Shown in pieces: positions 1,790-64,000 of a stretch of DNA of 64,000 nt (positions are counted from its first letter, which is position 1; every line of letters begins with the position of its first letter). The DNA is from Botryllus schlosseri (Eukaryota). The stretch spans positions 40,054,001 through 40,118,000 of the forward strand of contig CM119371.1 of NCBI GenBank assembly GCA_051294905.1. Reading direction: 5' to 3'. A model generated the notes under the pieces. That model saw only the letters and a list, made by a program, of their open reading frames with translations. It was not told where the DNA came from and did no database searches. The position numbers were made by a program, and so were the translations under genes.

Positions 1790-3148
1790 AGCCCCACACA
1801 AGAGCATCACTAACGCACTGATCAACACTCCTAGGCGTTGACTTTCAAATTGTTTAATGGTCTCTCGTTTAAATAATATAGAAAAGCACCATAATTAGTG
1901 CTGGTCAAAATCGTGTACCTGAGTGATTTGATTCTGAATCACGTATTATGCTTCGAGTCGAGTCGAGTATTCGAGTATCGAATGTAACATTCGATAATTC
2001 GAGTATCAATCATTATGACGTCACAATAGAATGTACTATGTCAAAGTTCAAATATGTATCTTTCATTTTAGATAAATTAGATAACATTAGTTATCTATAC
2101 TTTTATGGCACCACAAAAAACATAATGCCTGTTATCTATTATAGATAACTAACCTACGGTGCAGCACAATGACCATAACAACGGTCCGTGCGTGGTTGCG
2201 ATTGTTTAGAACAATGCCGATTTCCAGACTTTGAAGGCTATTTCGAGGTGGTTCCATTGCCTTGATGAAAGCATAGTGTCCTATATGGTGTCGACACAAG
2301 CAAATCGCACGGTTCAATGAAATTGTAAACGTCACAGTTTCCATTTGGCTACAGGCAATTTGACGGTGATTTTTGACCGGCTTGCCGAGCATTACATTTG
2401 ATGAATTGGGTATCAATCGAAAGCTGACGCTGTACTGCTTGCGAAAATATAAATTTTATTCCACTCATGGCCCTGGAACCCCCACAATCAGCCCCAAATT
2501 ATTCATTGTCGAGTAGATTGGCAGTGTGACGCAACAATGCTGTCTGGCGAAACGAGAGACTAGCTCAAGAGCAAGGATGCGGCCGAGCGGCGAGAGTGGG
2601 ATCAGCTGACGTCGCGGCAATAGCGATGTGCAACTATAGAGATTGAGCACCATAAACATGTTAGCTTCGAACACGCTTCTACTATGTGTAGACTGCTACC
2701 AGGCATAACTAAAAGTGTCATCTGTCTGTATTTGATTATCAATTTGAAGACTTCGTTCTATTGGCCTGTAATTAAGTCTTACATCTGGTTACAACTATCC
2801 GCACCAAAAGTTACAGTTACCTGACAATAGCCGAAAAAATCAGCCATAATATCCGAATTCTATATTCGACTGCCATAAAATTGTCTAATAAGACTCTCTT
2901 TCTCTCTCTAATAATATACACCAATCGAGTCTCCTCACATCCCGATAAAGCGACGGAAATGTCAAGCTCAAATGATTAATTACTGTTTATTTCACACCAA
3001 TTCTACACATTATATAACATGAAAATGCACTACACGAGGAAAATACAGTCGCCGATAATTCAGCCTCTTCACGCCACGCCCAAGGTGAAAGTACTTGGAA
3101 GTCATTCATCAAACCCTGGGTTGTGGGTATTATCAGTGTTGTCTCACA

Positions 3149-3404
3149 TAGGGTTACCATACGTGTCCTCAGGGAGGGCGCCTAAATATCTGGTTAAATA
3201 TATGTTAAAAATGTACTGAAATATAACGGATAAAGTGGGTGAATCAGGAGTCGAATCGACCTGATGACCTTTTTTTAGACGACCAACTTCTAACATTAAA
3301 TAAATTTACCAATGTTTTCGGATATTTCTCCTGTATTGTAAGTACCGTACATAAATTTTTACGATAGTGTCCTCTTTTCAGATTCCCAAAATATGGCAAC
3401 CGTA
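3149..3404 (+). mobile_element. Decayed hAT-like MITE (TAGGGTTACCATA family)
   Basis: Termini tagggttaccatacg / atatggcaaccgta match copies at 34624, 35584 and 51907. Confidence 0.6.
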
Positions 3405-3515
3405 TTTCGCATCAATCACAAGACGTGTAATAATGGTCAACAACAACAAGTTATAGGGTGCCGATCAGTTAATCATAATAATTCTGTTATAAGTGAATAA
3501 TGAATCCTATTTTAA

Positions 3516-3652
3516 CAGTATATTCCTATTGAAAGAACCCGAATACTTTCGGCTGACACTCGTCAGGGGTGATTGTCAGCAACTAGTACAGAATTGGAAA
3601 GAATAAATATACTATTCAATTGTATCTTGAAATTCTGTACCTCCAAGAAGCT
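3516..3652. mobile_element. Diverged remnant of the Penelope-like hammerhead-containing repeat
   Basis: 3516-3603 aligns with 27137-27224; 3607-3652 is the reverse complement of ~27099-27144; hammerhead motif on the minus strand at 3537-3570. Confidence 0.6.
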
Positions 3653-4736
3653 CTTTGAATCACATTTATTCAGTTATCAGAAATTCCGATTATTATACAT
3701 TTAGAAATTGTCTCTTTATCGGTAAACTTCAGTAGGCCCTATGGTAGGTCATTGAGAATTACACAGTCGCATTTTAATTAAAAAAAAACGGCCACTGAGG
3801 GGTACAAGCCGATGATAGTTTGGTTTGTGCATGTAGAATCACCAAGGTCGCAGAAAATGCAAACAACTGAACATCGATATGGACGCATTAATAATCATTC
3901 GTTTCAAGTACAGGGACCGTCATTCAACAACAGGATAACATCAGGGTTTTTGGCGAGAATTATCGATGAAATAATTTAGCAATGGAAGTTATAAACCCGG
4001 TTATATTAATATTCACTTTTTCTGCTGACGTCAACTGCACTAAAGACAAAGAAATTGATCACAAGATGATGACGGAACATATAAGATAACACATAATTGA
4101 TATTACATTGGGGTTCTTACACTAGATACATTCATGTTCAACAAAAAATTTTTTTTTCATTATTTTAGATATTTTTTTTTATTTTTATTGTATTTTGTTT
4201 GTATCACAATTCAAAATGTTAAAATACTATACACACGATACATTTAGGATCGATAACATTTTTTTATCATGTTTTTTGTACTTTTATCATATTCAATTAA
4301 TAAAAGATATAAAAATTCTTGATCACTTACACACCTTGAGAATTTAGTATATGTATACATACATGTAGCTACCTTCTACAATCATCGTGGAAGTTCGCAT
4401 GAAATGTAAATCGGCCTTGAGATTGTAACATCACGAATATACATGACAACAAGTGTAAGAACTGGTCGATATATTGATTAGAGTTGGTCAACAATACTGA
4501 TTTGACAAATAAATCCCAGCATAATTATACTTCGTCATTCTCCGACCTGATGATGTAGAAACAGAACATTGGTTGCAACAACGAAATATACACTATAACG
4601 ACAATTCATCATATAAGACACTTCATTGTAACTTGCGTATCAATCATGTTAAAAGCAGAACATCCTACGTAATACCGGATAGTAGTGGAATAACTTTTCT
4701 GTTTAAATCCATTTAATCAGTAATAACACCGTAAAA

Positions 4737-10863: not shown

Positions 10864-13800
10864 AGAATTAAAACTGGAGTTGTACAGTTTTTTAAAATTA
10901 GATTAGAATTAGAATTGGAGCTACACAGTTTTTTTTCAAATAAGATTAGAATTAGAGCTATTCAGTTTTTTTTAAATAAAATCATAATTAGAGCTACACA
11001 GTACAAATAACATTAGGATTAGAATTAGAGCTACACAGATTTTTTTTCCAAATAAGATTAGAATCAGAGCTATTCATTTTTAAAAAAATAAAATTATAAT
11101 TAGAGCTACACAGTTTTTTCCAAATAAGATTAGAATCAGAGCTATTCAGTTTTTTTTAAATAAAATTAAAATTAGAGCTACACAGTTTTTTCCAAATAAG
11201 ATTAGAATAGGAGCTATTTAGTTTTTTTAAATAAAATTATAATTAGAGCTACACAGTACAAATAACATTAGGATTAGAATTAGAGCTACACAGTTTTTTT
11301 TTCCAAATAAGATTAGAATCAAAGCTATTCGGTTTTTTTCAAATAAAATTATAATTAGAGCTACACAGTACAAATAACATTAGGATTAGAATTAGAGCTA
11401 CACAGTTTTTTCCAAATAAGATGAGAATCAGAGCTATTCAGTTTTTTAAAATAAAATTATAATTAGAGCTACACAGTTTTTCCAAATAAGATTAGAATCA
11501 GAGCTATTCAGTTTTTTTTAAATAAAATTATAATTAGGGCTACACAGTTTTTCCAAATAAGATTAGAATCAGAGCTATTCAGTTTTTTTTAAATAAAATT
11601 ATAATTAGAGCTACACAGTACAAATAACATTAGGATTAGAATTAGAGCTACACAGTTTTTTTTTTCCAAATAAGATTAGAATCAGAGCTATTCAGTTTTT
11701 TAAAATAAAATTATAATTAGAGCTACACAGTTTTTCCAAATAAGATTAGAATCAGAGCTATTCAGTTTTTTTTAAATAAAATTATAATTAGAGCTACACA
11801 GTACAAATAACATTAGGATTAGAATTAGAGCTACACAGTTTTTTTTTCCAAATAAGATTAGAATCAAAGCTATTCGGTTTTTTTCAAATAAAATTATAAT
11901 TAGAGCTACACAGTACAAATAACATTAGGATTAGAATTAGAGCTACACAGTTTTTTTTCCAAATAAGATTAGAATCAGAGCTATTGAGTGTTTTTAAATA
12001 AAATTATAATTAGGGCTACACAGTTTTTTCCAAATAAGATGAGAATCAGAGCTATTCAGGTTTTTAAAATAAAATTATAATTAGAGCTACACAGTTTTTC
12101 CAAATAAGATTAGAATCAGAGCTATTCAGTTTTTTTTAAATAAAATTATAATTAGAGCTACACAGTACAAATAACATTAGGATTAGAATTAGAGCTACAC
12201 AGTTTTTTTTTCCAAATAAGATTAGAATCAAAGCTATTCGGTTTTTTTCAAATAAAATTATAATTAGAGCTACACAGTACAAATAACATTAGGATTAGAA
12301 TTAGAGCTACACAGTTTTTTTTCCAAATAAGATTAGAATCAGAGCTATTGAGTGTTTTTAAATAAAATTATAATTAGGGCTACACAGTTTTTTCCAAATA
12401 AGATGAGAATCAGAGCTATTCAGGTTTTTAAAATAAAATTATAATTAGAGCTACACAGTACAAATAACATTAGGATTAGAATTAGAGCTACACAGTTTTT
12501 TTTCCAAATAAGATTAGAATCAGAGCTATTCATTTTTTTTAAAATAAAATTATAATTAGAGCTACACAGTTTTTTCCAAATAAGATTAGAATCAGAGCTA
12601 TTCAGTTTTTAAAATAAAATTATAATTAGAGCTACACAGTTTTTTCCAATAAGATTAGAATCAGAGCTATTCATTTTTTTAAAATAAAATTATAATTAGA
12701 GCTACACAGTTTTTCCAAATAAGATTAGAATCAGAGCTATTCAGTTTGTTTTAAATAAAATTATAATTAGGGCTACACAGTTTTTTCCAAATAAGATGAG
12801 AATCAGAGCTATTCAGTTTTTTAAAATAAAATTATAATTAGAGCTACACAGTTTTTCCAAATAAGATTAGAATCAGAGCTATTCAGTTTTTTTTAAATAA
12901 AATTATAATTAGGGCTACACAGTTTTTCCAAATAAGATTAGAATCAGAGCTATTCAGTTTTTTTTAAATAAAATTATAATTAGAGCTACACAGTACAAAT
13001 AACATTAGGATTAGAATTAGAGCTACACAGTTTTTTTTCCAAATAAGATTAGAATCAGAGCTATTGAGTGTTTTTAAATAAAATTATAATTAGGGCTACA
13101 CAGTTTTTTCCAAATAAGATTAGAATCAGAGCTATTCAGTTTTTTTTAAATAAAATTATAATTAGGGCTACACAGTTTTTTCCAAATAAGATGAGAATCA
13201 GAGCTATTCAGTTTTTTAAAATAAAATTATAATTAGAGCTACACAGTTTTTCCAAATAAGATTAGAATCAGAGCTATTCAGTTTTTTTTAAATAAAATTA
13301 TAATTAGGGCTACACAGTTTTTTCCAAATAAGATGAGAATCAGAGCTATTCAGTTTTTTAAAATAAAATTATAATTAGAGCTACACAGTTTTTCCAAATA
13401 AGATTAGAATCAGAGCTATTCAGTTTTTTTTAAATAAAATTATAATTAGAGCTACACAGTACAAATAACATTAGGATTATAATTAGAGCTACACAGATTT
13501 TTTTTCCAAATAAGATTAGAATCAGAGCTACACAGTTTTTTCCAAATAAGATTAGAATCAGAGCTACACAGTTTTTTCCAAATAAGATTAGAATCAGAGC
13601 TATTCAGTTTTTTTTAAATAAAATTATAATTAGAGCTACACAGTACAAATAACATTAGGATTAGAATTAGAGCTACACAGTTTTTTTTTTCCAAATAAGA
13701 TTAGAATCAGAGCTATTGAGTGTTTTTAAATAAAATTATAATTAGGGCTACACAGTTTTTTCCAAATAAGATGAGAATCAGAGCTATTCATTTTTTTAAA

Positions 13801-15046
13801 ATAAAATTATAATTAGAGCTACACAGTTTTTCCAAATAAGATTAGAATCAGAGCTATTCAGTTTTTTTTAAATAAAATTATAATTAGGGCTACACAGTTT
13901 TTTCCAAATAAGATGAGAATCAGAGCTATTCAGTTTTTTAAAATAAAATTATAATTAGAGCTACACAGTTTTTCCAAATAAGATTAGAATCAGAGCTATT
14001 CAGTTTTTTTTAAATAAAATTATAATTAGAGCTACACAGTACAAATAACATTAGGATTAGAATTAGAGCTACACATATTTTTTTTCCAAATAAGATTAGA
14101 ATCAGAGCTACACAGTTTTTTCCAAATAAGATTAGAATCAGAGCTACACAGTTTTTTCCAAATAAGATTAGAATCAGAGCTATTCAGTTTTTTTTTAAAT
14201 AAAATTATAATTAGAGCTACACAGTACAAATAACATTAGGATTAGAATTAGAGCTACACAGTTTTTTTTTTCCAAATAAGATTAGAATCAGAGCTATTGA
14301 GTGTTTTTAAATAAAATTATAATTAGGGCTACACAGTTTTTTCCAAATAAGATGAGAATCAGAGCTATTCAGTTTTTTAAAATAAAATTATAATTAGAGC
14401 TACACAGTTTTTCCAAATAAGATTAGAATCAGAGCTATTCAGTTTTTTTTAAATAAAATTATAATTAGAGCTACACAGTACAAATAACATTAGGATTAGA
14501 ATTAGAGCTACACATATTTTTTTTCCAAATAAGATTAGAATCAGAGCTACACAGTTTTTTCCAAATAAGATTAGAATCAGAGCTATTCAGTTTTTTTTTA
14601 ATAAAATTATAATTAGAGCTACACAGTACAAATAACATTAGGATTAGAATTTGAGCTACACAGTTTTTTTTTTCAAATAAGATTAGAATAGGAGCTATTC
14701 AGTTTTTTAAATAAAATTATAATTAGAGTTACACAGTTTTTTCCTAATAAGATTAGAATTAGAACTACACAGTTTTTTTCCATATCAGATTATAATTAGA
14801 GCTACAAAGTTTTTTTCAAATAAAATTATAATTAGAGCTACACAGTTTTTTTTCAAATAAGATTAGAATTAGAGTTACAGTTTTTTCCCAAACAAAATGA
14901 TATTTAGAGTTACAGTTTTTTTTTCCAAAAAAGATTAGGATTAGAATAAAAGCTACATAGTTTTTTTTTCAAATAAAATTATAATTAGAGATACATCGTT
15001 TTTTTTTTTTAAATTAGATTAGAATTAGAATTAGAGCTACACAGTA
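10864..15046. repeat. Tandem satellite of ~33-38-bp monomers in three variants forming higher-order repeats
   Basis: Units gagctacacagt(n)ccaaataagattagaatca, gagctattcagt(n)aaataaaattataatta and gagctacacagtacaaataacattaggattagaatta recur over ~4.2 kb. Confidence 0.97.
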
Positions 15047-16763: not shown

Positions 16764-18778
16764 TAGGGGTGTGCATTTCATCGGCTTTGTTGTTAAATCG
16801 TCAGGTTACCTAAAAAAACGATGCGCACCAAATTTGACCCAATTCCAACCAGTAGGGGCCGAGGTCACTCAAATTGAAATTTCGGTCATTTCTGAAATAA
16901 TGGTATTTACGGTGACCAATTTCGTCACACCGACATGACCCAAAATCGTGTTCCAGGTATGTCTGAAGTGGCAGGGATGTATTTTCCACTTGTTTTAATC
17001 TTGACAAGGGCATTTGGTTGGGTTTGGACAGGGTTGTATTGTAATGACTCGAGTCATGATTGGACTCGAGTCACAATTTTCTGATGACTCGACTTGACTC
17101 TTGTCATTTTGTCAAAATACGGAAATGAGTCGACTCGACTCGAGTAAATTTGTGTATTGACGCGACATGGACTAGAGTCATTGCGCATGACTCGAGCCAA
17201 GTCATATTACTCGAGACTCAGGCGGCCAAGACCGACATTTCATAGTAATTTCCAAGAATAGTCAAGTAACCACACTATTGGGATTTCGTCTTGGTACTGG
17301 TAGCCTTTCGGTACCTGAAAAAAGGGAGGAAAATTAGTATATTATAAATGCGAACCATTTGACTTGCGACCGGATTCCTTCTGACTTGGTTACAACCCTG
17401 GTTTCGGATGAAGACATCGCTAGTAAAAGAAAAAGATATGACACGGATTGCCTGAAAATTGGTCCACTTCATTGAAATCGACATGTTGAAACGATGGTGA
17501 GATAATTTTCAAATAGAGTACTTTACACACTGAAATTAATGACCACGAAAAGGAAATGAACTGACAAGAAGGTAAAATACAGGTAAATATATTCTCAAGT
17601 GATAGTCAAGTATATTCTGTCGGACCAATTTAGATTTCAAGACATCCATCCCAGTTATGCAAGGCGTACCGATGACTCTCTGCTTGATACAAAATTTTTA
17701 CTCATAGCAAAGTCGCCATTCCCAAAATCTCATCCACAAAGACATCAGTTGCATTCCTCAGCAGCTCCGTGTTCAGATATTTCTCTGCTACTTGACATTG
17801 ACTAATACAGGGCGTTAAAAATGGTGCTGATTGCAATTCAGAATGGGCTATGCCACTGAATCGTATTTATGAGTTGAAAAAAAAATTCTGATACTTCACA
17901 TAACGTTGATACCAGAATTTCTTATGTGCTCGAAACTTTGCGAGATTCAAGGAAACCAAATGGTAACCCAATGAGCTTATAAAGCACATTAGTCATTTAC
18001 TGGTCTTTCAATATCACCCGGGCCCCCTTGTCATACAGTAATGAAAAGCATTGGTGTTTTACCGCGATATATGGACACAATTCGATGGTAGTAACCGATA
18101 TGGAGGATGACATGAAGAGAGGACGATAACTTTTGATAGGGAGAAGATCTGTCCCGATGCCCATTAGTCCTATAAGTCACCTGTGTTATAGTACTATAGA
18201 AGTGCTGCAGAGCAAATAATAAAATATCATATAATATCAAATCGTATCGTGAAGAAATCTACAATGGACCGACAAAGATTATAGATATTGACTATCACTT
18301 GAGAAATATATTTGCCAGTGTTTTACATGCTTATTGTCAGTTCTTGTCTTTTTCGTGGCCGTTAATTTCAGTGTGTAAAGTACTCTATTTGAAAATTTTC
18401 TCACCATCGTTTTAAGGTCTCTATTTCAATAAAGTGGACCAATTTCCACGTAATACGTGCCACATCGTTTTTTCGTTTACTGGCGATGTCTTCATCTAAA
18501 TCCGACCATAGGCCCTTGTCAAGATCAAAACAAGTGGAAAATACATCCATGCTACTTCAGACATACCTTGAATACGATTTTTGGTCATGTCGGTGTGACG
18601 AAATTGGTCAGCGGAGATATCATTATTTAAAAAAATGACCAGAATTTCAATTTGAGTTACTTCGGCTTCTACTATTTGGAATTGAGTCAAATTTGGTATG
18701 AAACGTTTGTTTAGGTAACCTGACGATTTGACAACGAAGCCGATGAAATTTGAAAAAAAATATTTTTGAACGCCCCTA
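16764..18778. mobile_element. Foldback element (TAGGGGTGTTCAA family) with ~500-bp diverged inverted arms
   Basis: 16776-17020 mirrors 18500-18750 and 17408-17640 mirrors 18250-18497; termini taggggtg / cgccccta. Confidence 0.8.
17029..17400 (+). mobile_element. hAT MITE (CAGGGTTGTAA family) nested in the foldback left arm
   Basis: TIR cagggttgta / tacaaccctg; degenerate TSD ggtttgga / gtttcgga; the opposite arm shows the empty site. Confidence 0.85.
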
Positions 18779-25314: not shown

Positions 25315-27157
25315 CTGAAAAGATAGAAATATGTTATGAAGTGTTGACTAAAACCAAGTCTGAAAGTCAGTTTGACATCAAGTCATTAGCGTCAAAAAAC
25401 AAAGTAACTGAGCCGCAATCTATTCGCTTTACGATTGAAGGATCTTCGATGTAGCCGACATTACAAAGTGATATCTTAAAGGTGGTGATATCAGCGACTG
25501 TCAGTGAATAAAATATCCATTGCGAGTGTTTGCGACTAATGTCATGTAGTGATATCATGCCATTCATTACCATTATATTTGGAATAATTTAAAAATTCAT
25601 ATTCGCTATGCCTTTAAATTCCAAGAATAGGAGTCGATTCCAGATTTACATAATTGTGCGTGTGAGCAGCAATCCCTTACATATTGAACGATATGAAAAA
25701 ATGGGTCATATTGGAGATTACTGAAGAAATTTCGACCAACATTCATGAGAAAATGATTTGACAGGAGTAATATTATTATTATACAAATACCCGTATGTGT
25801 TCCGAAAATATTCAAATAATTCTGCGAAGATGGAAAGCCAATATTTACATTTAAATCATTTTATAAAGACACCAGAAAGATTATAAACAAAATTTCTACG
25901 ACCAAAGACGGAAAAATATAGATTCCTCCATGAAGGCAAACTAAAGACACTCAATTTCATCAAATTCACTGTTCTGACGCACAAGGACTGAGCAGGCGAT
26001 GATCACTTTCGTTGATGCGTTACAAGACTATTAATAATACCAGGGGCAGCGTTCAGCCCGCCAATTGTTCCGCTCAGGTCCGGATTCAGTTGCACATGTA
26101 AAAAGTTGGCAAGAAACCCAACCTGCCATGTCAGTGGTTCTCAAACTTTTTGGACACGCCCTCCTTGATGGTAGTGAAAAATTCCGCGCCACCTTATCGC
26201 CATATCAAAAAAAAAAAATTAAAAAGTGCAACAAGAATACTTGCAATCCCAACGCATAGTCTGGTGGTATGTAACGTTATGACTCTTGAGATACCTTTAA
26301 AATATCAAATTGGGACTAAAGACCAGGGATGGCTGCTAACCTTTCCAGCCAAAGCGTCACAGGAGATTTACGAACCATTGCGCGGGCCACTTGAAAATTG
26401 ATGACCTGTTAGTAGTCGTCCAATAAGAGCGAACCGCATTAGGTAACGGTGAAAACAAGACTTATATTACAACGCACCAAAATCGATAGCAATTATGTCA
26501 TTAAAACCTAGTAATAGCCTCGCGAAGCGAGTAATTTTTTCTAAGTTATGAATGAATTCCGTCAATAATAATGGTACTTGCATTTATTGCTTGTCGCCTC
26601 TGTATACCGCTGGGCTCATTTGGCAAGGATTGGATTATTCAGGACGTGGACATATCAATATTGAAGATTTTAGCGAACATGCGTCCATCATTTTGTACCA
26701 AGGTGTCATCGCCGACAATCTTTCTGCGAGTGTAGACATGTAGAGTTGTAGACGCATGTCGGACGACAATCTTTCTGCGGGTGTAGACATGTAGACGCAT
26801 GTCGGACGACACTTTTTCTCATAATTGTGCATATAGCTACACTCAATTAACTGTAAATTGGGCGTATTATGAAATTTCAGGAGGGGTACCAAGATACCAG
26901 GGTTGTAATGACTCGACTCGAGTCACGATTTTCTGATGACTCGACTCGAGTCATTTTCTCAAAATACAGAAATGACTCGACTCGAGTCTATCTGTGTATT
27001 GACTCGAGTCATTACACATGACTCGAACCAAGTCATATGACTCGAGAAGCAGACGGCCAAGACCAACATTTCATTGTAATTTCCAAGAATAGTTGAACAG
27101 CTTCTTTGAGGTACAGAACTTCAATATACAATTGAATAGTATATTCATATTAAATGA

Positions 27158-27191
27158 ACCCGAATATTTTCGGCTGACACTCGTCAGGGGT
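27158..27191 (-). ncRNA. Minimal type I hammerhead ribozyme motif
   Basis: ACCC-CUGACGA-G(UGUCAGC)C-GAAA-AUAU-UC-GGGU on the minus strand. Confidence 0.55.
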
Positions 27192-27348
27192 AATCGTCAG
27201 CAACTAGTAGAGAATTCGAAAGAATCAGCGTATATCAACAATCGTAACACAAAATATGACGACATTTCATGCTGGTGACGTCATATTTTGTGTTACGATT
27301 GTTGATATACGCTGATTCTTTCGAATTCTCTACTAGTTGCTGACGATT

Positions 27349-27382
27349 ACCCCTGACGAGTGTCAGCCGAAAATATTCGGGT
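27349..27382 (+). ncRNA. Minimal type I hammerhead ribozyme motif
   Basis: Stem I ACCC/GGGU, core CUGACGA and GAAA, 1-bp stem II, palindromic stem III AAUAUU, UUC cleavage triplet ending at 27378. Confidence 0.55.
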
Positions 27383-28875
27383 TCATTTAATATGAATATA
27401 CTATTCAAGAATAGTTGAGTAACCACACTATTGGGATTTCGTCTTGGTATTGGTACTTGAAAATGGGAGGAAAATTAGTATATTATATCTACGAACCATT
27501 CGATATCACCAAACAGAGTTATAAAAAGTGGGCTCATCAAGACTTTACCTGGAAACTGAGCAGTCAACACAATGACTTGGATTCGGACTCGAGTCATAAT
27601 ACCATGACTCAGACTCGACCCTCTGCTCGCTGACTTGACTCGGTGGTGAATTGAAAATGACTCGACTTGACTCGAGTCAAAACTATAAAAGTGAGATTGT
27701 CTTTTGACTCGGAGCCTTGCGACTTTGTTACAAGGCTGCAAGATACTAAAAGCAAGTAATAGAGAGACAATAAAACACACTAAGCGCTAAGACAAATATC
27801 TACTTCGTGGTCATAAGAGAACATCTACGATAAATGTGGCAGAACACTACCTACGCCAATGCGTTGGAATTTATATTTTAGTTAGCAACATCTCGTATTC
27901 CGCAGTCAGGCTAATCAAGTTTCCGGTTAGCCTTGCAAGTTCAAAATAAATTTCTTGGGTAATTTATTTTTTGATATTATAACTAATATTGAGAATTACC
28001 TCGCAGGTCATTCAAAACCTTCTCGCGGGTCAAATGTTGGCCGTCCCTGGTCCCTGCTATAGACGGGTCAATGATTATCAGCTAGCTAAATCGAGCGAAG
28101 CAAGAAAAAATTCCAGTTGATGTCAAAAATAATCATATTCAATGGTAGCACGAATAGCATGTACACATTTCAGCGATTTTGGTGTCGAATACCTTCTGTT
28201 TACCCACTTCTGGCCATAAGCGAAATCAAAAACCCATGGCGCGGCTCTGTTCTAAGCCATTTTGATTTAAATCCTCATTTCTAAAATCATGGCATATGGC
28301 ATGAGCCTATGAGGACATATTTTATTTCTCCATATCGTTGAGTCTTACTACGCTCTTTGTACAGTAGGGGTGTTCAAAGATAACATTTTTCTTCAAATTT
28401 CACTGGCTACTTGATAAATTGAAAGGTTGGCTAAAAAACTCAGCATAACAGATTTGGTTCAATTCCAACCAGTTTTTTACAAGGCTGCAAGATACTAAAA
28501 GCAAGCAATAGAGAGACAATAAAACACACTAAGCGCTAAGACAAATATCTACTTCGTGTGTCATAAAAGAACATCTACGATAAATGTGGCAGGACACTAC
28601 ATACGCCAATGCGTTGGAATTGATATTTTAGTTAGCATTCTTAGCAACATCTCATATTCCGCAGTCAGTCTAATCAAGTTTCTGGTTGGCCTTGCAAGTT
28701 CAAAATACATTTCTTGGGTAATTTATTTTTTGACATTATAACTCAAATTGAGAATTACCTCGCGGCTCATTCAAAACCTGCTATTGACGGACCAATGATT
28801 ATCAGCTAGCTAAATCGAGCGAAGCAAGAAAAAATTCCAGTTGATGTCAAAAATAATCACTTTCAATGGTAGCAC

Positions 28876-42140: not shown

Positions 42141-43373
42141 AATCATAAACTGGAAATATTTTTTGCGTTCCGCGCCACTTACTTCCAGCTAGAATTTATT
42201 GTCTCTCTGTTCTTTCGCATATTTGACGTCACGTTAACGTTCATGATCCACACAAAACTGTAGTTGGCCTAATATACGAATACGACATATTCTCTTTATG
42301 GTTAGGGTTCTGGTAAAAATCCTTTTGCCTCTGCTTAAATTCACTTTTAATCGAAGCAATAATTAAAATCATGATTTTACTAATAATAAAACAATAACAG
42401 AACATGGAATAAATGAGGACCATACCAATTAATATAATGGAGCATATCGAATCAACTGAATAATTCGCAGCTCGGAGTCACCATCCCATAGTTCAAGTAG
42501 TTCAATCTCACTGGCAGAAATGGGTCGCCAGAATTGCCGTTAACCTGTTCCCAGATACGTTGAGTAGGGCAGGTGCAGGGTAGCAGGTCTGAAGGTTCTG
42601 AGTCACAAGTCAGTCTCACTTTCATAGTTTTGAGTCGAGTCATTTTCAAATTACCACCGAGTCAAGTCCTAGTCGGAGTCAGGATGTAGGACTGGCATTA
42701 TTTTTTGTGTACATATTTCATTTTTCTAGGTCAATTATACAGTTGTTACTTAAATGATGTGTGATACTCGAATACTCGACTAGACGCCGAATGCGCGATT
42801 CAGAATCGAATCCCTCAGGTAATTGATTTCGATCAGCCCTAATGTTGAGTATAGTCTGAATTATCTATAACACTAGCATATGTAGCATGAGTATCATTGA
42901 TGATATCTGGAGTAGTTTCTGGATGCGAAAAACTATGTCCTGTTTATGTACAAATGCATATGGTTATAAAATAATAAACCACATTCACACAACTCCCCAG
43001 AAAATAAAACAGCCGCAAAAATATATAAAGTCAGCGCGGAGGAATTAAATCAAATATCAAGGGTGAATGCCTGACATAAAATCGACCTAAATTAAATCCA
43101 CCCTATACATTTAATATCGGAGTGGACGGGGCAATATTGAATATTTTCCAAATACAAAACATTTCTTATAGTGCAACACGCTGTAGATTTTTCCATGGTA
43201 ATGTAGGCCTAAGTAGGCCTACATTGCAGAAGGGGGTTCTTAAATCCCGAAAACTTGAATAAAAATTGACATTACGGATGGCCCCCATTTTCCAGCTGGT
43301 GACCTCTCAATTTTTGCACACAAGGGGCTAAAAATGCACATTACCAAACTAAATTTAATATAATATATCTGAC

Positions 43374-44768
43374 CTTTGTACAAATCGTTTTGTGATTTTG
43401 AGAAGACGACGCCTGCCACGAATCGTCGCACAACGGACCATCGTTCTTCATGGAGATGTTCTTCATCGAAGCGAGAGAACTCGTTGAGATTCATTTCTGT
43501 TATAAAAATCGCTGCCAGGTATTCTTGAAGGCTTTGATGACAGAAAAACAATGTGAAATTTCCTTCCATCAAATGTTGGCTTAGTAGGTTGCTCCCCGGA
43601 ACTTTAGTCATCAAATCTTGGACTTCATCTGCCGAGATTCCAAGTTTCTTCAAGTCCCTCTTTTTGAACACGACCCGTCCTTCTCTCATGCCTCGAAATG
43701 CCAATTTCTTCAGTTTGTTGACGATCGATAAAATTTGTTCCCGATTTCGAATGTTTTCGACGCTTTGTAAAGATGATATGATCCTGCAGTATAGTTCTGT
43801 CACCGTTGTTGGAGGAGGTTTATCTGGATCCCTTCCCATCACAACTGCCGTAAGAATCAGAAAAACGGGCACAGAGATTAAATTGATCAATCTTGGTGAC
43901 ATAGTCTCAATTTTCTGCCAGAGGTCCTCACCATTCTCTTGGAGTAAAAATGCAAATAACCTATGCGCGTCATCATACGTAAGGCCATTCAGCGTGATGA
44001 TGGTTTCGGGTCGCGCCATCGCCGGTAACTCTGAAACCTTGAACTCGCGCGAAGCTATGTAGACATTAACGTGACGCAGGATATTCCGGGATAAAATGTT
44101 GTACATGACTGTCCCGCAGCTTGCTTTTTCGTGCTTTTTCATTTTGCGTGGATTTTTCTCAAAATGCCACCTTGCTTGATCAAGTCCGTCGAATATGAGG
44201 AGTGCATCGGATTGATGTTGATCCAGCCATTTGAATGCCTGATCCTCTTCAAATTCACTTTCGAAGAGCCCTCCAAATAAAAATTTGGATGGTTTAATCT
44301 TGCCCTTCACTTCAACGTCTTTCAATTCAATATAATGGACCATTATTTTACCGAAAGAGGGCAGATCTTCAAAATGCTCAATTTCGCAAGATGCGCCGAG
44401 AGCTCTTCGAGCTATTCTGCGTGTAAGTGTGGATTTTCCCGATCCTGCAGATGCCACAATAGCGGTTATACCCACAGTTGCTGATAAGCCTGATTTTTTC
44501 TTTTGCCACATGGATGCCACTACGTCCTCGATCCCGACATCTTTCGCTTCAATCGTGTCTTTCCGAAAAAATCCAACTTCCTGTGTCAGCTGGTTATGGC
44601 CATGGCGACCTTTGTAATAATCATCAACGTCAACGCGACGCATCTGTGGGTAAACTTCAAAGTCAGGTTGCTGAAGCTTTTCATGTCGAAAGTCATCAAG
44701 GATACCAATGGCCGTCACATCCATAGTATTTTCGTTGCAAATTTGTATGAGTTTTGTGTAGCTTATAT
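43374..44768 (-). CDS. NACHT-domain (NLR-like) protein, large internal phase 1-1 exon
   Basis: Walker A ASAGSGKST, Walker B LLIFDGLDQ, sensor IASR, ISVPVFL, winged-helix FCHQSLQEYLAA; acceptor ccttcttttcag at 44769, donor gtcaga at 43373; open throughout. Confidence 0.93.
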
Positions 44769-46121
44769 CTGAAAAGAAGGTAATATTTCAAATCTACTAC
44801 TACGAACCAGAGCCATCCTTTCTTGTATCGCAATTCGACTGCGCATCAACTTTCAAATGCGACTAGCAATGAGGTCCGGCAGATTTGCAATGATTCGAGT
44901 CATAACTTGAGTTAATGTATGTATCGACTCGACTTGTATTCGAGTCATTGCGCAAGAATCGACACATGTTACATGACTTATTCGAGTCAGATATATCAGT
45001 CAGTGTTGGGATGACTCGAGTCACCTTTTTCGTGTGACTTGACTTGACTCTAGTCACTTTGCAATAGTGACTTGACTCGAAGTTTCAAAAATCCGGATTG
45101 AATCGTGACTCGAAGCAAAATTTACGAGTCAATTTCAGATCATTAAGTAATCGATATCGACTAAGTCGCTGTATCTTGTATAAGTTCAAATTGTGCGAAC
45201 GATACGTCGGTGTGATCTGTGAGAGCAGCCAATTACTCAATGGTTGTACGTTTTACCGAGCCTCAGTAGTAGGGTTTGGTCAAATTGTTGCCCGCCAATC
45301 AGAGAGCGCCACGTCATCCTAATTGCCACGCCCATTTTCATCCCCTAAGGGTACATTCATCTGATACGTCATCTGTGCCACATCATCAAGCGCCACGCCT
45401 ATAGTGCCACATTATCCATCCATTGCTATATCATCACTGCATTGATTGCCGCATCTTGATACTTTTCTCAGATATTGTATTATGTGTATTTAGGACTAAT
45501 ATCATCCGTCCATATTTTTTAAACTTGATTTTATGTGTATAAGTTACGGTTTCTGCAGTTTCCACATTTTAGGACTTATGATTGCCGCGTCAAAACTTAC
45601 CTTGGCTAGAATCGACAGATATTGTATTATGTGTATTTAGGACTATGTATTTAAATTCCTACATGAATGCGAAAACTATGATGTCTATGCAAGGCTATAT
45701 TCTCCGGATAATATTATTATTATGAAAATTCTACACATCATCACTAATTACTTAATATAAAATGCGATTTTGAGCGCTGCGACTTGATAATATCAATCCC
45801 TACGCTTCTGATGCATGATTTTTTGTGATAAGGACCTAGGTAACATTCAGAGTCTGCAACGATTGTTTGGATATACATTATAGCAATACCCCACCAAACT
45901 ATAGGCGGTTATATTACTCTATTGGTCAGAGATAACTCATCCGTCCATATTTTTAAATTTGATTTTATGTCTACAAGTTACGGTCTCTGCAGCCTCCACA
46001 TTTTACGACTTATTTTCATTAGACGCAGGCAAGCGATTCTCCAGCTCGGAGCTACGAAAACAAATCACTTGCATGTGCGCGTTCCGAATAGTCTTGTAGA
46101 ATTTTCTAAAGTCGTAACAGC

Positions 46122-46627: not shown

Positions 46628-47214
46628 GGAGCAGAATTGTGACCGATACATTAATGATTTTAATACTCTGTATTTTAAATTACCCACACCTTTGAGTCGA
46701 AATGTTCTTAAGTAACTCATGTTTTCAATATCACCTAAACGCAAAGTTCCAAAATTTCCATGTTGATCAAATACCACAAACTTTGCTTGCTTTCAGACTT
46801 AGTAACAAAGCGCATAACAGATTTCACCTAAATAAGTCGGTACTCCGAAAATTTTGTAAATTAGAGCTTTTCGGTGATGGACTTAAGTTCCAATGCACAA
46901 GTGTTCACGTAGGTTCGAATGGAGCAGAATTGTGACCGATGCATTAATGATTTTAATACGTACGTATTTTAAATTACCCACGCCTATGAGTCGAAATTTT
47001 CTTAAGTAACTCATGTTTTCAATATCACCTAAACGCAAAGTTCCAATATTTCCATGTTGATCAAATACCACAAATTTTGCTTGCTTTCAGACTTGGTAAC
47101 AAAGCGCATAACAGAATTCACCTAAAAAAGTCGGTACTCCGAAAATTTTGTAAATTAGAGCTTTTTGGTGATGGACTTAAGTTCCAATGAACAAGTGTTC
47201 ACGTAGGTTCGAAT
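46628..47214 (+). repeat. Tandem duplication of a ~294-bp unit, mirrored from 63468 to 64000
   Basis: ggagcagaattgtgaccgat at 46628 and 46921; both units end gttcacgtaggttcgaat. Confidence 0.9.
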
Positions 47215-50200
47215 CCCACACCCAGAACGTTTTACGAGAATTAACATTTTTAGATTCAAATAGAGCATATTGAGTATTAGAGGCGTTTACACTATGGAGT
47301 TCGTAAGCTTTGCTTGAGTTTTTTAAATTAAGGTAGAAGTAGCCATTTCCGAGTAAGTAAAACGTTAGTATTTTAGGTTCATTTCTGCTTAATACAATAA
47401 TCATCGTGGTGTTGAAGCAGTCCAATATCATTTACACTTGAAAGAATTTGTTGCGTGCAGCTAAAAACCTAATTGAGTACTCTGAAGAAGTACAAGTAGC
47501 ACAGTTTGTGGTGTTTGTATGACATCAAAATTTACGTACTTTTCGCTTACCTTATGTTAATAGTGTTCCTCGTCTATCTACTTTATAAGATTTAGTGTAG
47601 AAATTCAGTAGAAATGTAAACACGCTTGAATATGAGTAAAACTCATTACACTATTACACTACAGCATTACACTATGACTGATTATTTCAATTAGCAAGCA
47701 TAATAGATCATCACCTAATGAATGCAAGGACGAGTTCGCAAGTGGAAAATAAGTCAGATCGCTCGAAATAATAGTCCCGAGTTGCGTAAAGATAATGTTC
47801 TCCCCGTAGCTGAGATCAAGGTTTGCAATTTCGCCTATGGGAATGAGGTATTAGAAAATACCAATTCGAGAGGTTCTCTACTAGATAGTGCCTATAGCTT
47901 TCAATACCACAAACTTTGCTTGCTTTCAGAGCCGGCAACTAAATTCAAGACAGACTTTACGCAAAACTTGCTATTCTGAAAATTTTGTCAAGGTAATGGT
48001 TTAAAAACTTATACTTGAGCACTACGAAATGTACAAGTACTTTATCTTTACACGACGTTTTTTGTAAAATGAATACTAATTTTATTGAAAAAATAAAAAA
48101 GAGCGAAAAATTACATTTTATCCCGAAACGCAACAAGAAAAATCGTATGAATTTGTAAACTACTTATTCATGACATAATAATAATTCTACTTGTACACTT
48201 TTTCACATTTTATAACACTTTGAGTAGTACTTAACAGTTTCAGTTTTAAATAAAATACGGAATATAAACTAATCGAAAAATTCGGTAACCAATTTCGCGT
48301 AGGCTATGCATACAAATGAGGAAAGTTACATCAACGCGTGTTAAACTAGTTGTATCGAGATATCGAATGATTTTTTCCTTCATCAAAACAACTAGAATGT
48401 GTAACTACATTTAAAAAACGTATCTAAATGAGCTCCAGGGCATTGTGATTATGCAGCCTACCAAATTTCATCACACATTTCATGATGGAGCAACTTTAAA
48501 ACTAACGCAGTTCTATAGCAACTTTTACCTAAATCTGTCTTCGGTAGAGTGTAAATATACATAGTCAGCTTTAATAACAGAATTACCATGCTAATATGTG
48601 ACTCCCCACCTTGAAACTTGATACGTAGTTGTAGGACATTGTGATGATGCGGCATACCAAATTTCCTCACGCATTTCATAACGGAGCAACTTTAAAACTA
48701 ACGCGGCTCTACATCGACTTTTTGCCTACAGCTGTTTTGCGGGGAGGGGCGTATAGCACGTACCTATACATAGTCAACTTTAACAACGGAATTACCGTGC
48801 TTAACATTGAATCCCAACTCTAAACTTGATACGTAGTTGTGGGACATTATGGCAATGCACCATGCTAAATTTCATCACACATCCAATGATGGAACACCTT
48901 TAAAACTAACGCAGTCGAATACCGACTTTTACGCATATCTGTTTTGCGTGAACATAGCATATACCTAAACATAGTCAATTTTAATAGCAGAATTGCCGTG
49001 TTAAACATTGAATTCTCACCATGAAAGTTGGTACGCGGTTATAGGAGGCTATAACAATGCGCCATACCAAATCCCATCACACATTTCATGATGGAACAAC
49101 TTTAAAACTAACGCGGCTCTACATCGACTTTTTGCGTACATCTGTTTTGTGGGAGCGTATAGCACGTACCCATACATAGCCAACTTTAATAACGGAATTA
49201 CCATGCTTAACATTGAATCCCAACTCGATACTTGATACGTAGTTGTAGGACATTATGGCAATGCACCATGCTGAATTTCATCACACATCTAATGATGGAA
49301 CACCTTTAACACTAACGCAGTTCTATACCAACTTCGCAGGAATCTGTTTGCGGGAGCGTAGCACGTACCTATGCGTGATCAACTTTAGTGATGGAATTAC
49401 AGATGTAATTAAGTTTCAACACTTTTACAACGATTCGTCTTGCTTCCTATAACATCCCACTCGACGCCCTCTTTATTAGGCTGTAATCTCAGCCTGAGCT
49501 ATGTCTTGAAGCCTACGGGACTCTGCAAATTGTTTCGATTTATTCTCTCCGTTTCAATTCAAGATAAGGAAGCCCATTTCACTCAAAATATCGATGCCTA
49601 CGGTACTCTACAAAATTTTCTGATTAATTCTTCCTATGCTTATTTATCATAAGAAAGATGATTTGACACCTAAAGTACGAAATACTTGTTCGCTTGAGCT
49701 AAGCCGCAGCGCTCGGAGTGGAATTTACTAACGCAGTCGAATACCGACTTTTACGCATATCTGTTTTGCGTGAACATAGCATATACCTATACTTAGTCAA
49801 TTTTAATAGCAGAATCACAATGCTAAACATTGAATTCCCACCTTGACAGTTGATACGCGGTTACAGGACATGACAACAATGCACCATACCAAATTCCGTC
49901 GCACATTTCATGATGGAACAACTTTAAAACTAACGCGGCTCTACACCGACTTTTTGCGTACATATGTTTTGTGGGAGCGTATGATAACACGTACCCATAC
50001 ATAGTCAATTTTAATAACGGAAATACCATGCTTAACATTGAATCCCAACTCGAAACTTGATACGTAGTTGTAGGACATTATGGCAATGCACCATATCAAA
50101 TTTCGTCACACATTTCATGATGTAACACCTTTAAAACTAACGCAGTTCTCTACAGACTTTTGCGTAAATCTGTTTTTCGGTAGCGTAGCACGTACCTATA

Positions 50201-53112: not shown

Positions 53113-56100
53113 ATCTACACCAATGCCTCCATAGCAAACAACACACTTATGCTCTGTAAGTTAGTTGTATTTTGTATTACAGAATCTGACGATCTGGACT
53201 GGATGGTTACATTGGTTAGTCTACCTGCCATTTTCCTCAAAAATAAACTTCTTCCTGTCTGATCAGGTACGAATATTTATCGATATTATCAAGCAGTTGT
53301 TTGATTTGAAGTATACATAATTCGGGACTGTCAGAACGATTCGACAGTCCTAGTCGAACTTTGCATTTTATAGCAACTATGTAATTGTAGTTTAAACACA
53401 TTTTTTCAACGGTATACATCCCATTGCTATTAAATCGTTTTTAGTCTGGCAGCCTTTCATAACTAATCATTTGGCTGGGAATTCGACAGCAGAGCAGTCA
53501 TATTTTTTACAGCTGCAACCGATGAAATAAGATCAGATAAGGGCATTTGAATATTTACTCCTTCTCAAACGCCCTGCTGTTGACAAGCCCGTGCACCCTT
53601 TTCATCGCAGTCGCAGTGAAGCAGTGGTGTACAAATGGCGTTTCGCAAAGCAATTTCTGGGTGTCCACACACTCAATTGGCAACATGAATGATAACCTAA
53701 TTTTTAGGCCCAGATTCAGATCATCACGCCGTATATTTAGGCGATTACAAGTATATAAGTGGTGATCTGCAAGCTATGTTAGTGTTATATACTTCAAGTG
53801 GACATCTTGAGTAGTACAGCTTTTTCAAAAAGTAGAACTAAACGCATAATTTTAGCTGTATTTCGAAGGTGGCCACTTTTCAACTCGATAGATGCATATT
53901 CGCAACTTACTCAATATGAGTAATAACATGACAGTTGCAGTAAAACAGAGTTACAAATTTAAAAACTTTTGAGGGTGTCCAGCCCGCAGGACTGGACGGT
54001 CAAAAAGAGGTCGGCATGGTGACGATAAAAAGTTGGTGTCAGCGTGAGCTGCTGACTAACACCTGGTTGTCAAGTCCATCTAATGTTCATATACCCGAGC
54101 CAGAGGCGTTAAACGCAGTTAACAAGGCTATACTGAAGTAGAAGTAGGAAGACATAATTTTACTCGGTACGAGTTATGTTGTAAACCAGCTACAAGTAGA
54201 AGTAGTTTGACAGTCTTTTGATACTACTCAAGTGAGCATGTATTTTTGAATAGTTATAATACACTGCCAATATGTATGTTTGACCTGTTTCACAATACCA
54301 AACCTTTCTTCAGATGCCCAGATCAGCCTACCTTACAATTTGTTCTGCTGTGGAAAAGAAGAAGTGGGCCATCTACTTTGATGGGGAGACAGTCCGAGAT
54401 ATCAACAGCTTCCATGAGGAATTTGCAGTGATGCTTTCAGTCTACTGGATATTCGACATACAGTTTTCGACAAACATCAGAAATTCCCTCACTTTCATGT
54501 CAGTTCTAGCACACTGTTGAAAGAGATGAGTTCTGCTGTTCGCACCAAACTTGGTAAAATCTGGGACTAATTTGAAAATAAAGTTTTGGAATAAAGGCGA
54601 TGTTGTGATTTATGTCAACGTGGATTATGAAGATTTAATTTAGATGTTGTGCGCATCGAAGTCGTTTGACGAAGATATCCGGATAGGACGAGGTGGTATC
54701 TGGATAGGCTGATGAGGTGGTTTACCGATAGCATAGGGGAGGAAAATTTTCCACCTAAAATAGGTGGGGGAGCCCACCACCCTTTACGAGTGGAGAAAAT
54801 ACCACCTCCTTTGGGTGATTTTTGAAACACCTCTGTAAGGTGGCCACAGTTTTTACAGTGTACGCAGTTGTAACACAATGCACCATGTCAAATTCGGTTA
54901 CGCATTTCATGATTGAACAACTTTAAAACTAGCGCAGTTCGACACCGACTTTTGCGGGAGAGTAGCATGTACCTATGCATAATCAACTTTAATAACGAAA
55001 TTACCATGCTAAACATTGAATGCGCAACTTGAAAATTGGTTCACAGGTGTAGGACATTATGACAATGGAACATATCAAATTTCATCACACATTTCATGAT
55101 GGAACACCTTTAAAACTAACGCAGTTCTATACCGATTTCACGTGAATCTGTTTGCGGGAGCGTAGCACGTACCTATGCGTAGTCAACTTTAATGACGGAA
55201 TTACAGATGTAATTAAGTTTCAACACTTTTACAATGATTCGTCTTGCTTCCTATAACATCCCACTCGAAGCCCTCGTTATTAGGTTATGATCTCAGCCTG
55301 AGCTATGTCTTGAAGCCTACGGGAATCTGCAAATTGTTTCGATTTATTCTGTCAGTTTCAATTTAAGATAAGGGAACCCATTTCACTCAATGTATCGATG
55401 CCTACGGTACTCTACAAAATTTTCTGATTAATTCTCCCTATGTTAATTTATCATAAGAAAGATGATTTGAATCCTAAAGTACGAAATACTTGTTCGCTTG
55501 AGCTGAGCCGCAGCGCTTGGAGTGGAATTTTACGAGGTATGTGGACTCATTTCGAAGGGCTCTATGCCATAGGAGCATACTTTACGCTCCAATTTGACTC
55601 CCATACATTCCATATAGTTACTAACAAAACCATTGAGTACCAGCCTGGAAATTTCGCGTAGCACTAGATGGCATGTATACAATTTCATGACATCCGACAG
55701 TACGACGGAGACTATCAAAATATCGACAGAAGCCCTCTATTCTTTTCTGAAATAATCAAGGTTTTATCAGGACTTCCCTTCATATAAACTCCAGCAGAAT
55801 CACTAATAACCTCTCAAGTTTACTCAATTTACTCTAATTTGACACTCGAGTACTTAATCCCTATTTTCCGCAAGTATGATACAGGCTATCGCTCGATACT
55901 CAACGATTCGTAATTTTGCTGGAATACAAGTACAATTAGGGATTAAAAAGTAACTAATATAGGTGGTTATGTTTGTAGATTATTTACACTTCTATACTTA
56001 CCGGTTTTTCAGGAGAAACTACCTACTTTTAGGACTTTATATTTTAAAGTAGCTTGAGGTTACGTTTGTATCACTTTGACAAGTGCTATCATCAAAAACT

Positions 56101-59100: not shown

Positions 59101-59279
59101 GAGTGAAATGGGTTCCCTTATCTTAAATTGAAACTGACAGAATAAATCGAAACAATTTGCAGATTCCCGTAGGCTTCAAGACATAGCTCAGGCTGAGATC
59201 ATAACCTAATAACGAGGGCTTCGAGTGGGATGTTATAGGAAGCAAGACGAATCATTGTAAAAGTGTTGAAACTTAATTA

Positions 59280-62236: not shown

Positions 62237-64000
62237 GGCTGCATAATCACAATGCCCTGGAGCTCATTTAGATACGTTTTTTAAATGTAGTTACACATTC
62301 TAGTTGTTTTGATGAAGGAAAAAATCATTCGATATCTCGATACAACTAGTTTAACACGCGTTGATGTAACTTTCCTCATTTGTATGCATAGCCTACGCGA
62401 AATTGGTTACCGAATTTTTCGATTAGTTTATATTCCGTATTTTATTTAAAACTGAAACTGTTAAGTACTACTCAAAGTGTTATAAAATGTGAAAAAGTGT
62501 ACAAGTAGAATTATTATTATGTCATGAATAAGTAGTTTACAAATTCATACGATTTTTCTTGTTGCGTTTCGGGATAAAATGTAATTTTTCGCTCTTTTTT
62601 ATTTTTTCAATAAAATTAGTATTCATTTTACAAAAAACGTCGTGTAAAGATAAAGTACTTGTACATTTCGTAGTGCTCAAGTATAAGTTTTTAAACCACT
62701 ACCTTGACAAAATTTTCAGAATAGCAAGTTTTGCGTAAAGTCTGTCTTGAATTTAGTTGCCGGCTCTGAAAGCAAGCAAAGTTTGTGGTATTGAAAGCTA
62801 TAGGCACTATCTAGTAGAGAACCTCTCGAATTGGTATTTTCTAATACCTCATTCCCATAGGCGAAATTGCAAACCTTGATCTCAGCTACGGGGAGAACAT
62901 TATCTTTACGCAACTCGGGACTATTATTTCGAGCGATCTGACTTATTTTCCACTTGCGAACTCGTCCTTGCATTCATTAGGTGATGATCTATTATGCTTG
63001 CTAATTGAAATAATCAATCATAGTGTAATGCTTATGTGAGTTTTACTCATATTCAAGCGTGTTTACATTTCTACTGAATTTCTACACTAAATCTTATAAA
63101 GTAGATAGACGAGGAACACTATTAACATAAGGTAAGCGAAAAGTACGTAAATTTTGATGTCATACAAACACCACAAACTGTGCTACTTGTACTTCTTCAG
63201 AGTACTCAATTAGGTTTTTAGCTGCACGCAACAAATTCTTTCAAGTGTAAATGATATTGGACTGCTTCAACACCACGATGATTATTGTATTAAGCAGAAA
63301 TGAACCTAAAATACTAACGTTTTACTTACTCGGAAATGGCTACTTCTACCTTAATTTAAAAAACTCAAGCAAAGCTTACGAACTCCATAGTGTAAACGCC
63401 TCTAATACTCAATATGCTCTATTTGAATCTAAAAATGTTAATTCTCGTAAAACGTACTGGGTGTGGGATTCGAACCTACGTGAACACTTGTTCATTGGAA
63501 CTTAAGTCCATCACCAAAAAGCTCTAATTTACAAAATTTTCGGAGTACCGACTTTTTTAGGTGAATTCTGTTATGCGCTTTGTTACCAAGTCTGAAAGCA
63601 AGCAAAATTTGTGGTATTTGATCAACATGGAAATATTGGAACTTTGCGTTTAGGTGATATTGAAAACATGAGTTACTTAAGAAAATTTCGACTCATAGGC
63701 GTGGGTAATTTAAAATACGTACGTATTAAAATCATTAATGCATCGGTCACAATTCTGCTCCATTCGAACCTACGTGAACACTTGTGCATTGGAACTTAAG
63801 TCCATCACCGAAAAGCTCTAATTTACAAAATTTTCGGAGTACCGACTTATTTAGGTGAAATCTGTTATGCGCTTTGTTACTAAGTCTGAAAGCAAGCAAA
63901 GTTTGTGGTATTTGATCAACATGGAAATTTTGGAACTTTGCGTTTAGGTGATATTGAAAACATGAGTTACTTAAGAACATTTCGACTCATAGGTGTGGGT

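Follow-up and report, generated by a model that had tools for sequence, protein, structure and literature searches.

A probable Penelope-like retroelement insertion made of two inverted element ends in Botryllus schlosseri, with a minimal hammerhead motif on both strands

The locus that we analysed lies in a 64,000 nt stretch of Botryllus schlosseri DNA (contig CM119371.1, positions 40,054,001–40,118,000; hereafter the window, in whose coordinates all positions are given) and consists of a short insertion within a host repeat. The host, at 26898–27738, is a non-autonomous DNA transposon of approximately 520 nt without coding capacity, which has short TIRs (terminal inverted repeats) of 11 bp (9 of 11 positions match) and an exact 8 bp TSD (target-site duplication; 26890–26897 and 27739–27746), and which has paralogues at 17029–17400 and elsewhere in the window. 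From the 8 bp TSD and the CAG ends we take it to be a hAT-like MITE, and these borders agree with a preliminary description of this DNA, in which the insertion was placed inside a MITE. The same description put the insertion inside a probable NLR intron, a claim that we found unsupported because no further exon of the candidate gene could be detected. A NACHT/winged-helix exon is present at 43240–44787 on the minus strand, 16 kb from the insertion, and has 18 homologues, of which the five named ones are Styela clava proteins (best identity 36–37%); searches by tblastn with five of the 18 homologues and with two small HMMs found no LRR or other exon of the NACHT gene on the far side of the insertion (best other HMM match, E 0.14).

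The insertion contains two perfect inverted arms of 130 nt each (27132–27261 and 27279–27408), separated by a spacer of 17 nt, and is flanked by an exact 13 nt direct repeat (27084–27096 and 27406–27418). A 35 nt extension, at 27097–27131, is present on the left side only, as had been described. The right arm and the right copy of the direct repeat share 3 nt (27406–27408), so we give the length of the TSD as 9–13 nt, a refinement of the 13 bp originally proposed; the 9 nt core of the duplication alone has a chance probability of approximately 7e-4 when ±5 nt of slack is allowed. The paralogous host repeats near 17250 and 190 hold the target site once only, i.e. as an empty site. In addition, we compared four runs (X1, X4, X23 and X21) with positions 27030–27278 (left flank, tail, left arm and spacer) at a lax 85% likeness, and in run X4 102 contigs pass from the left flank directly into the right flank. 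The site thus being single in the paralogues and in these contigs, we conclude that the direct repeat is a TSD.

The spacer could also be assigned, because family members that run past 27261 read into its reverse complement (160 loose-end records in X1 and 144 reads in X23) and the spacer is therefore part of the right piece. The insertion is thus composed of a 149 nt piece in sense orientation (27260–27408, plus strand), which has no tail and contains the spacer at 27262–27278, and a 165 nt antisense piece (27097–27261, sense on the minus strand), in which the left arm is continuous with the tail; the two are joined over a 2 nt microhomology at 27260–27261. Both pieces are 5′-truncated and stand head to head, and the piece with the tail extends 35 nt deeper into the element. 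The earlier term ‘perfect palindrome’ accordingly holds for the arms, but not for the insertion as a whole, as the 17 nt between them are the upstream continuation of the right arm. In total the insertion measures 322 nt, comprises element ends only, without an ORF, and has a predicted hairpin energy of −239.7 kcal/mol.

Arms that are 100% identical might raise the suspicion that the assembly had folded one arm back on itself, the more so as the depth over the spacer is very low and none of the contig pieces listed spans the whole of 27030–27278. We nevertheless regard such an artefact as extremely unlikely, since both copies of the duplication carry private letters of this host copy, and since neither the asymmetry of tail and spacer nor the structure of a second family member resembles a foldback artefact. 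This second, older copy, at 3511–3655 on the minus strand, is 89–91% identical with the first and has a 94 nt arm with the hammerhead motif on the minus strand, head to head with approximately 17 nt of arm plus the same tail (3603–3655). Its arm end lies 0–6 nt and its tail end 1–2 nt from the corresponding ends of the 27084–27418 copy, whereas its truncation differs; only a degenerate TSD (10 of 12 positions) could be seen.

The second copy also bears on the reading of the insertion as a foldback or MITE-type DNA transposon, in which the arms would be long TIRs and the hammerhead-like motif a product of chance. Long perfect inverted arms with a TSD would suit such an element, as would the failure of Rfam to match a hammerhead (see below), but the tail occurs on one side only, the spacer is contiguous element sequence, the arms are unequal and variable in length (94 compared with 17 nt in the second copy) and the strict motif did not occur in 100 simulated controls. 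We consider this reading very improbable, and by the second copy it is already largely refuted.

Both copies belong to a family of very high copy number. Matches to the probe were found in 68508 of 23782245 contigs in X1 and in 26329 of 3825060 in X4, counts that include contigs of the 67 nt host flank and are not copy numbers. The tail end of the family adjoins many different AT-rich flanks, which start at 27093–27099 (agreement 0.40–0.45 in the DNA runs), and the 5′ ends differ between copies; at the arm end (27132) the depth shows no step. Among the 15 of 216 joints listed, seven are opposite-strand joints and six are go-back (tandem-like) joints, at varied points; these positions are approximate, because several joints pile up at two indel clip points, 27151 and 27224. 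Inverted or partial-tandem arrangements of 5′-truncated copies are therefore present in the two window copies and in the family joints. Family sequences also occur in RNA, with 3357 of 12895792 reads in X23, equally from both strands, and 10495 of 22200192 in X21, approximately 2:1 in favour of the hammerhead-sense strand, assuming the customary mate convention. Between 78 and 98% of these RNA reads continue into unlike sequence, as expected of passengers in host transcripts.

Within the right arm lies a type I hammerhead motif (27349–27382, plus strand), in agreement with the preliminary description. Stem I is formed by 27349–27352 and 27379–27382, the core heptamer occupies 27353–27359, stem II consists of the single base pair G27360–C27368, and the 3′ part (27369–27378) is made up of GAA (27369–27371), a 6 nt palindrome representing stem III (27372–27377) and C17 at 27378, the cleavage position originally named. 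The mirror motif in the left arm (27158–27191, minus strand; C17 at 27162) also matches the descriptor that we used; the inversion by itself accounts for the motif being on both strands. Across the 64 kb window the descriptor, which was composed after the motif had been seen, matches at three sites (27353 plus, 27187 minus and 3566 minus), compared with no strict match in 100 simulated 64 kb windows and 0.34 loose matches per window. The conserved core, G10.1–C11.1, the 4 bp stem I and the 6 nt stem III palindrome are all present in both window copies, and the core is the best-covered part of the family. Changes in core and stems occur at 2–15%, three of the four at CpG, and include G12>A at 2.6–6.7% and G1.1>A at 4.8–15% of summed contig depth.

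A search with the covariance models of Rfam, which had been suggested as a check, returned 26 matches at E≤10, none of them to a hammerhead family, and nothing reached the gathering score in the whole window. The top match, MIR6217 (101.8 bits; gathering score, 110), we take to be a generic match to a long hairpin. We also considered whether an upstream CUGACGA might be the core instead, in which case the CUGAC/GUCAG hairpin would be its stem II; this was rejected, as it lacks a stem I and a G10.1–C11.1 pair and the second copy no longer has its G8. RNA ends were not seen to accumulate at the cut site in X23 or X21, both of which are fragmented cDNA libraries poorly suited to reveal such a pile.

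The competing CUGAC/GUCAG hairpin between core and loop II, of which the preliminary description had warned, is real and forms the predicted minimum-energy fold. The active nested fold does not emerge from the prediction: stem I has a probability of 0.04 in the 27 kb copy and 0.001 in the 3.5 kb copy, as calculated by a folding program that cannot model pseudoknots. The other caveat raised earlier, that stem II has a single base pair, is correct as far as it goes, but is softened by a candidate 7 bp pairing that had been overlooked: a segment 5′ of the motif (27339–27345, plus strand), a near-duplicate of the core heptamer, is complementary to all seven nucleotides of loop II (27361–27367) and is thus a candidate pseudoknot strand. 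The resulting helix would have six Watson–Crick pairs and one G-U pair in the 27 kb copy and seven Watson–Crick pairs in the 3.5 kb copy, a complementarity for which the chance is 0.005 at a random 26 nt site. Loop II is also complementary to the catalytic core over 5 nt; the duplex energies are −9.6 kcal/mol with the 5′ segment and −4.7 kcal/mol with the core, and the upstream helix has a predicted occupancy of 0.37 in the 27 kb copy and 0.99 in the 3.5 kb copy. Since the 5′ segment nearly duplicates the core, its pairing with loop II may be a by-product of that duplication. Changes in the 5′ segment are rare in DNA (0.15–0.3% at 27200 and 1.2–1.9% at 27201, of summed depth), and in RNA they reach 7–9% in X23 and 42–47% on one orientation in X21; no covariation or compensating substitution in loop II was seen among the 40 of 141 variants listed.

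On these predictions we tentatively suggest, while thinking it rather doubtful, that the family carries a switchable hammerhead, in which the partner of loop II would be the catalytic CUGAC in the off state and the duplicated CUGAC-containing segment 14 nt upstream in the on state, the latter pairing forming a pseudoknot between stem I and stem II.

Downstream of the hammerhead the family shows signs of coding. An ATG at 27148 on the minus strand, 14 nt past the cut site, starts a frame of 17 codons that has no stop before the tail ends, and we propose, from an excess of silent changes, that 27098–27148 (minus strand) represents the first 17 codons of the parent ORF, corresponding to residues 17–33 of P0019, with the tail as codons 7–17. 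From the ATG onwards the short arm and tail differ between the window copies at four positions, all of them silent, and six of the seven family variants in 27097–27148 are silent too. In the union of both sets, which have two positions in common, eight of nine counted changes are silent (binomial p 0.0015 if the null allows transitions only and 2e-5 if it allows all changes, both before correction for six frames); the family variants here are those among the 40 of 141 listed. The count excludes the ATG position itself, which reads AGG in the long arm of the 3.5 kb copy and would make the figure eight of ten. By this pattern of substitution the tail behaves as the start of a putative coding frame. 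A frame running through the hammerhead itself, in which eight of nine changes between the window copies are silent, was also considered and was dropped, because many members carry an additional base behind 27151 and the frame is thereby interrupted upstream of the ATG.

We then looked for relatives and for the parent element. No continuation of the ORF past the tail was found among the 24 of 1023 loose ends listed. The exact 22 nt core pattern has no match in metagenome and viral contigs, and a degenerate hammerhead pattern matches 14 metagenome loci and no viral one, none of them homologous with the family (best blastn E 0.09), so that they could not supply a set for covariation analysis; the stem III palindrome is present in five of the 14 and an upstream pairing of at least 6 bp in none. 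Peptide searches, weak tests with such short queries, returned one candidate and nothing at E≤10 for the 41-residue window frame, and no match at E≤0.001 for 33 residues. The linkage to an ORF with RT (reverse transcriptase) and GIY-YIG domains, proposed as a check in the preliminary description, was accordingly not recovered by DNA patterns in metagenome and viral contigs or by the short-peptide searches. As no parent element was found, we base membership in the PLEs (Penelope-like elements) on anatomy and not on an RT.

This anatomy matches published Penelope-like insertions in its inverted ends, TSD and tail, and the structure is already described in print. In Pen2a/Pen2 of Adineta vaga (PMC3846280) inverted pLTRs are accompanied by an 8–10 bp TSD and by a 31 bp tail, with which the pLTR covers 22 instead of 12 codons, and a tail of 30–40 bp is described as general in endonuclease-bearing PLEs (PMC8557442). 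The present insertion shares with Pen2a/Pen2 the head-to-head 5′-truncated ends, the short TSD, the 30–40 nt tail at one end and the position of pLTR plus tail over the first codons, but consists of ends only (322 nt, no ORF) and has a TSD of up to 13 nt rather than 8–10 nt. In Poseidon of Anolis carolinensis (PAc; PMC11167929) the tail equals the distance between two RT start sites and targets are AT-rich; as there, we see two 3′ ends approximately 35 nt apart in the start of the ORF, AT-rich targets, a hammerhead adjoining the start codon and no RNA-seq ends at the cut site. However, PAc is cut 26 nt downstream of the start codon, compared with 14 nt upstream of the inferred ATG here, and RT starts approximately 111–118 nt into its ORF, whereas the ends here lie at approximately +17 and +52.

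Only the shape of the small hammerhead motif looks slightly unusual. With the minimal type I hammerheads of PLEs, especially the Drosophila virilis type, whose short helix III is palindromic (PMC4209133), it shares the CUGANGA and GAAA core, G10.1–C11.1, the 4 bp helix I and a palindromic 15.1–16.1 segment suited to dimers. That source reports opposite-strand hammerhead pairs 100–700 bp apart and weak cleavage of dimers; in its Figure S3, as judged by eye, stem II has 3–8 bp in all 56 representatives. Unlike these, the present motif has a helix II of 1 bp, no extra base after A9 and a loop II complementary to both the 5′ segment and the core. Moreover, two reviews (PMC6155905 and PMC7761336), as well as PMC4209133, describe PLE hammerheads as devoid of tertiary contacts. 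Pseudoknots are predicted in approximately 40% of hammerheads in PMC3088659, in which a metagenomic ribozyme with a 1 bp stem II cleaved rapidly; the motif described here resembles that ribozyme in its 1 bp stem II and in the predicted Watson–Crick helix linking the peripheries of stems I and II, but is of type I rather than the type II consensus, lacks a stable stem III, resides in a PLE end and has a helix that is predicted, whereas the metagenomic ribozyme was assayed. No description of a pseudoknotted PLE hammerhead with a 1 bp stem II was found in the literature on Penelope and PLE hammerheads, pseudoknots and ascidian Penelope elements. Luense et al. 2017 reportedly describes a very large number of variants linked to PLEs and cleaving as dimers, and reportedly treats a contact between the 5′ segment and loop II as common in hammerheads; that work or its supplements may already contain the form considered here. 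The supplement of PMC8557442 contains no ascidian genus name and no core motif.

Taken together, the anatomy, the second copy, the family-wide ends, the coding signal of the tail and the perfect arms and direct repeat make it highly probable that the insertion is a recent, dead copy of an endonuclease-bearing PLE, reduced to its ends, in keeping with the young Penelope-like insertion originally suggested. It might instead be a short non-autonomous element derived from a PLE, SINE-like or retrozyme-like, with its own template and mobilized in trans, in which the coding signal of the tail would be a relic. The tens of thousands of short contigs and the missing parent would be explained in this way, the go-back joints could be short tandem arrays, and animal retrozymes reportedly derive from pLTRs (10.64898/2026.07.22.740005). 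We think this improbable, as the excess of silent changes among common variants implies coding masters, the 5′ ends vary between copies and no tandem array of the unit occurs within the 64 kb window. Whereas retrozymes are defined by head-to-tail tandem units that each contain a hammerhead, both window copies are head to head. At the go-back joints found elsewhere in the family, such arrays may occur.

If the insertion is indeed a truncated PLE copy, as we prefer, the element protein would have made a staggered cut in AT-rich DNA, as the PLE literature suggests (PMC11167929), and reverse transcription would have been primed from both cut strands at two internal RNA sites, approximately 17 and 52 nt into the ORF, whose spacing would set the length of the tail, as in the same source. 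Both cDNAs may then have halted early, at 165 and 149 nt, and been joined over the 2 nt microhomology. We infer priming of both strands in a single event; PMC3846280 favours self-priming on the antisense template instead. The near-hairpin at the junction is compatible with such self-priming. In the parent element the hammerhead would be situated immediately 5′ of the start codon, and cleavage after the position equivalent to C27378 would require a dimer formed through the 6 nt palindrome, with probable help from the helix between loop II and the 5′ segment or from the protein. In the 27 kb copy, a read-through transcript of either strand would yield the antisense arm first and fold into the 130 bp hairpin, and as this would sequester the motif, the ribozyme of this copy should be silent.

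Apart from the possible pseudoknot or off-state, the insertion is ordinary. As a record of a Penelope-type integration it is nevertheless a clean textbook example, in which the two internal start points, the duplicated target and the junction can all still be read, and it marks a very abundant and probably still active family. PLE hammerheads show low activity in vitro and were dispensable for insertion in the one reconstituted system; a variant that contained its own pseudoknot or off-state would offer a cheap bench test of their role. If the switch that we tentatively propose is real, cleavage would depend on inclusion of the 5′ segment in the transcript, on single-base variants and on dimerization through the stem III palindrome; the motif might cleave faster than the sluggish PLE motifs assayed so far, and would provide a testable handle on when PLE hammerheads cut.

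At the right junction of the Penelope-like insertion, where the right arm meets the right copy of its target site duplication, the target is similar to the element's own end (27400-27413). Approximately 7 nt are common to the cut site and the start of the antisense arm, since the arm end and the target make up the two halves of a short inverted repeat that spans the junction. This likeness between the target and the element's own end may reflect a target preference, as judged from one clear site only. Within the element, a pyrimidine-rich run with TAG at its end (27316-27338, + strand) lies directly 5' of the candidate pseudoknot segment, which is complementary to hammerhead loop II. The run resembles a 3' splice or trans-splice acceptor, and Drosophila virilis Penelope contains an intron whose end is at helix I (PMC4209133).

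Other repeats were also observed in the window. A local duplication of 430 bp (27724-28151 and 28473-28875; 85%) begins with the last 15 nt of the hAT-like host MITE plus its target site duplication. An AT-rich tandem array of 4.2 kb (GC 0.24-0.31) occupies 10866-15046, and a 570 bp element with long inverted ends (1222-1789; 85% self-complementary) is unrelated to the Penelope-like insertion.

One long exon of an NLR-like gene, encoding NACHT and winged-helix domains, was found at 43240-44787 on the minus strand; no LRR exons were detected within the window. Directly upstream, a 4.8 kb palindrome (54860-59629; 99.3% identity) is enclosed by a 2.65 kb inverted duplication (46682-49334 and 61361-64000; 99.1%) that continues beyond the window end. 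This nested arrangement is either a recent inverted duplication or an assembly artefact.

Among the metagenome contigs matching a degenerate hammerhead pattern, two repeat-rich contigs carry related hammerhead-like motifs, L001 at 3730-3759(-) and L005 at 3253-3282(+), with an identical palindromic stem III and a stem I of 5-7 bp; no RT was found near either motif in these two contigs. A third contig, L014 (3,010 nt), has a 127-nt terminal direct repeat; it represents a circle or a tandem unit of 2,883 nt, with a GC of 0.30. Its type I hammerhead, with a palindromic stem III (1945-1976(-)), directly follows a frame that matches RT (RVT_1, E 3e-9); a second ORF, in a different frame, comes after the hammerhead, and no GIY-YIG motif was seen in the 3,010-nt contig. 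L014 looks like an endonuclease-less Penelope-type unit.
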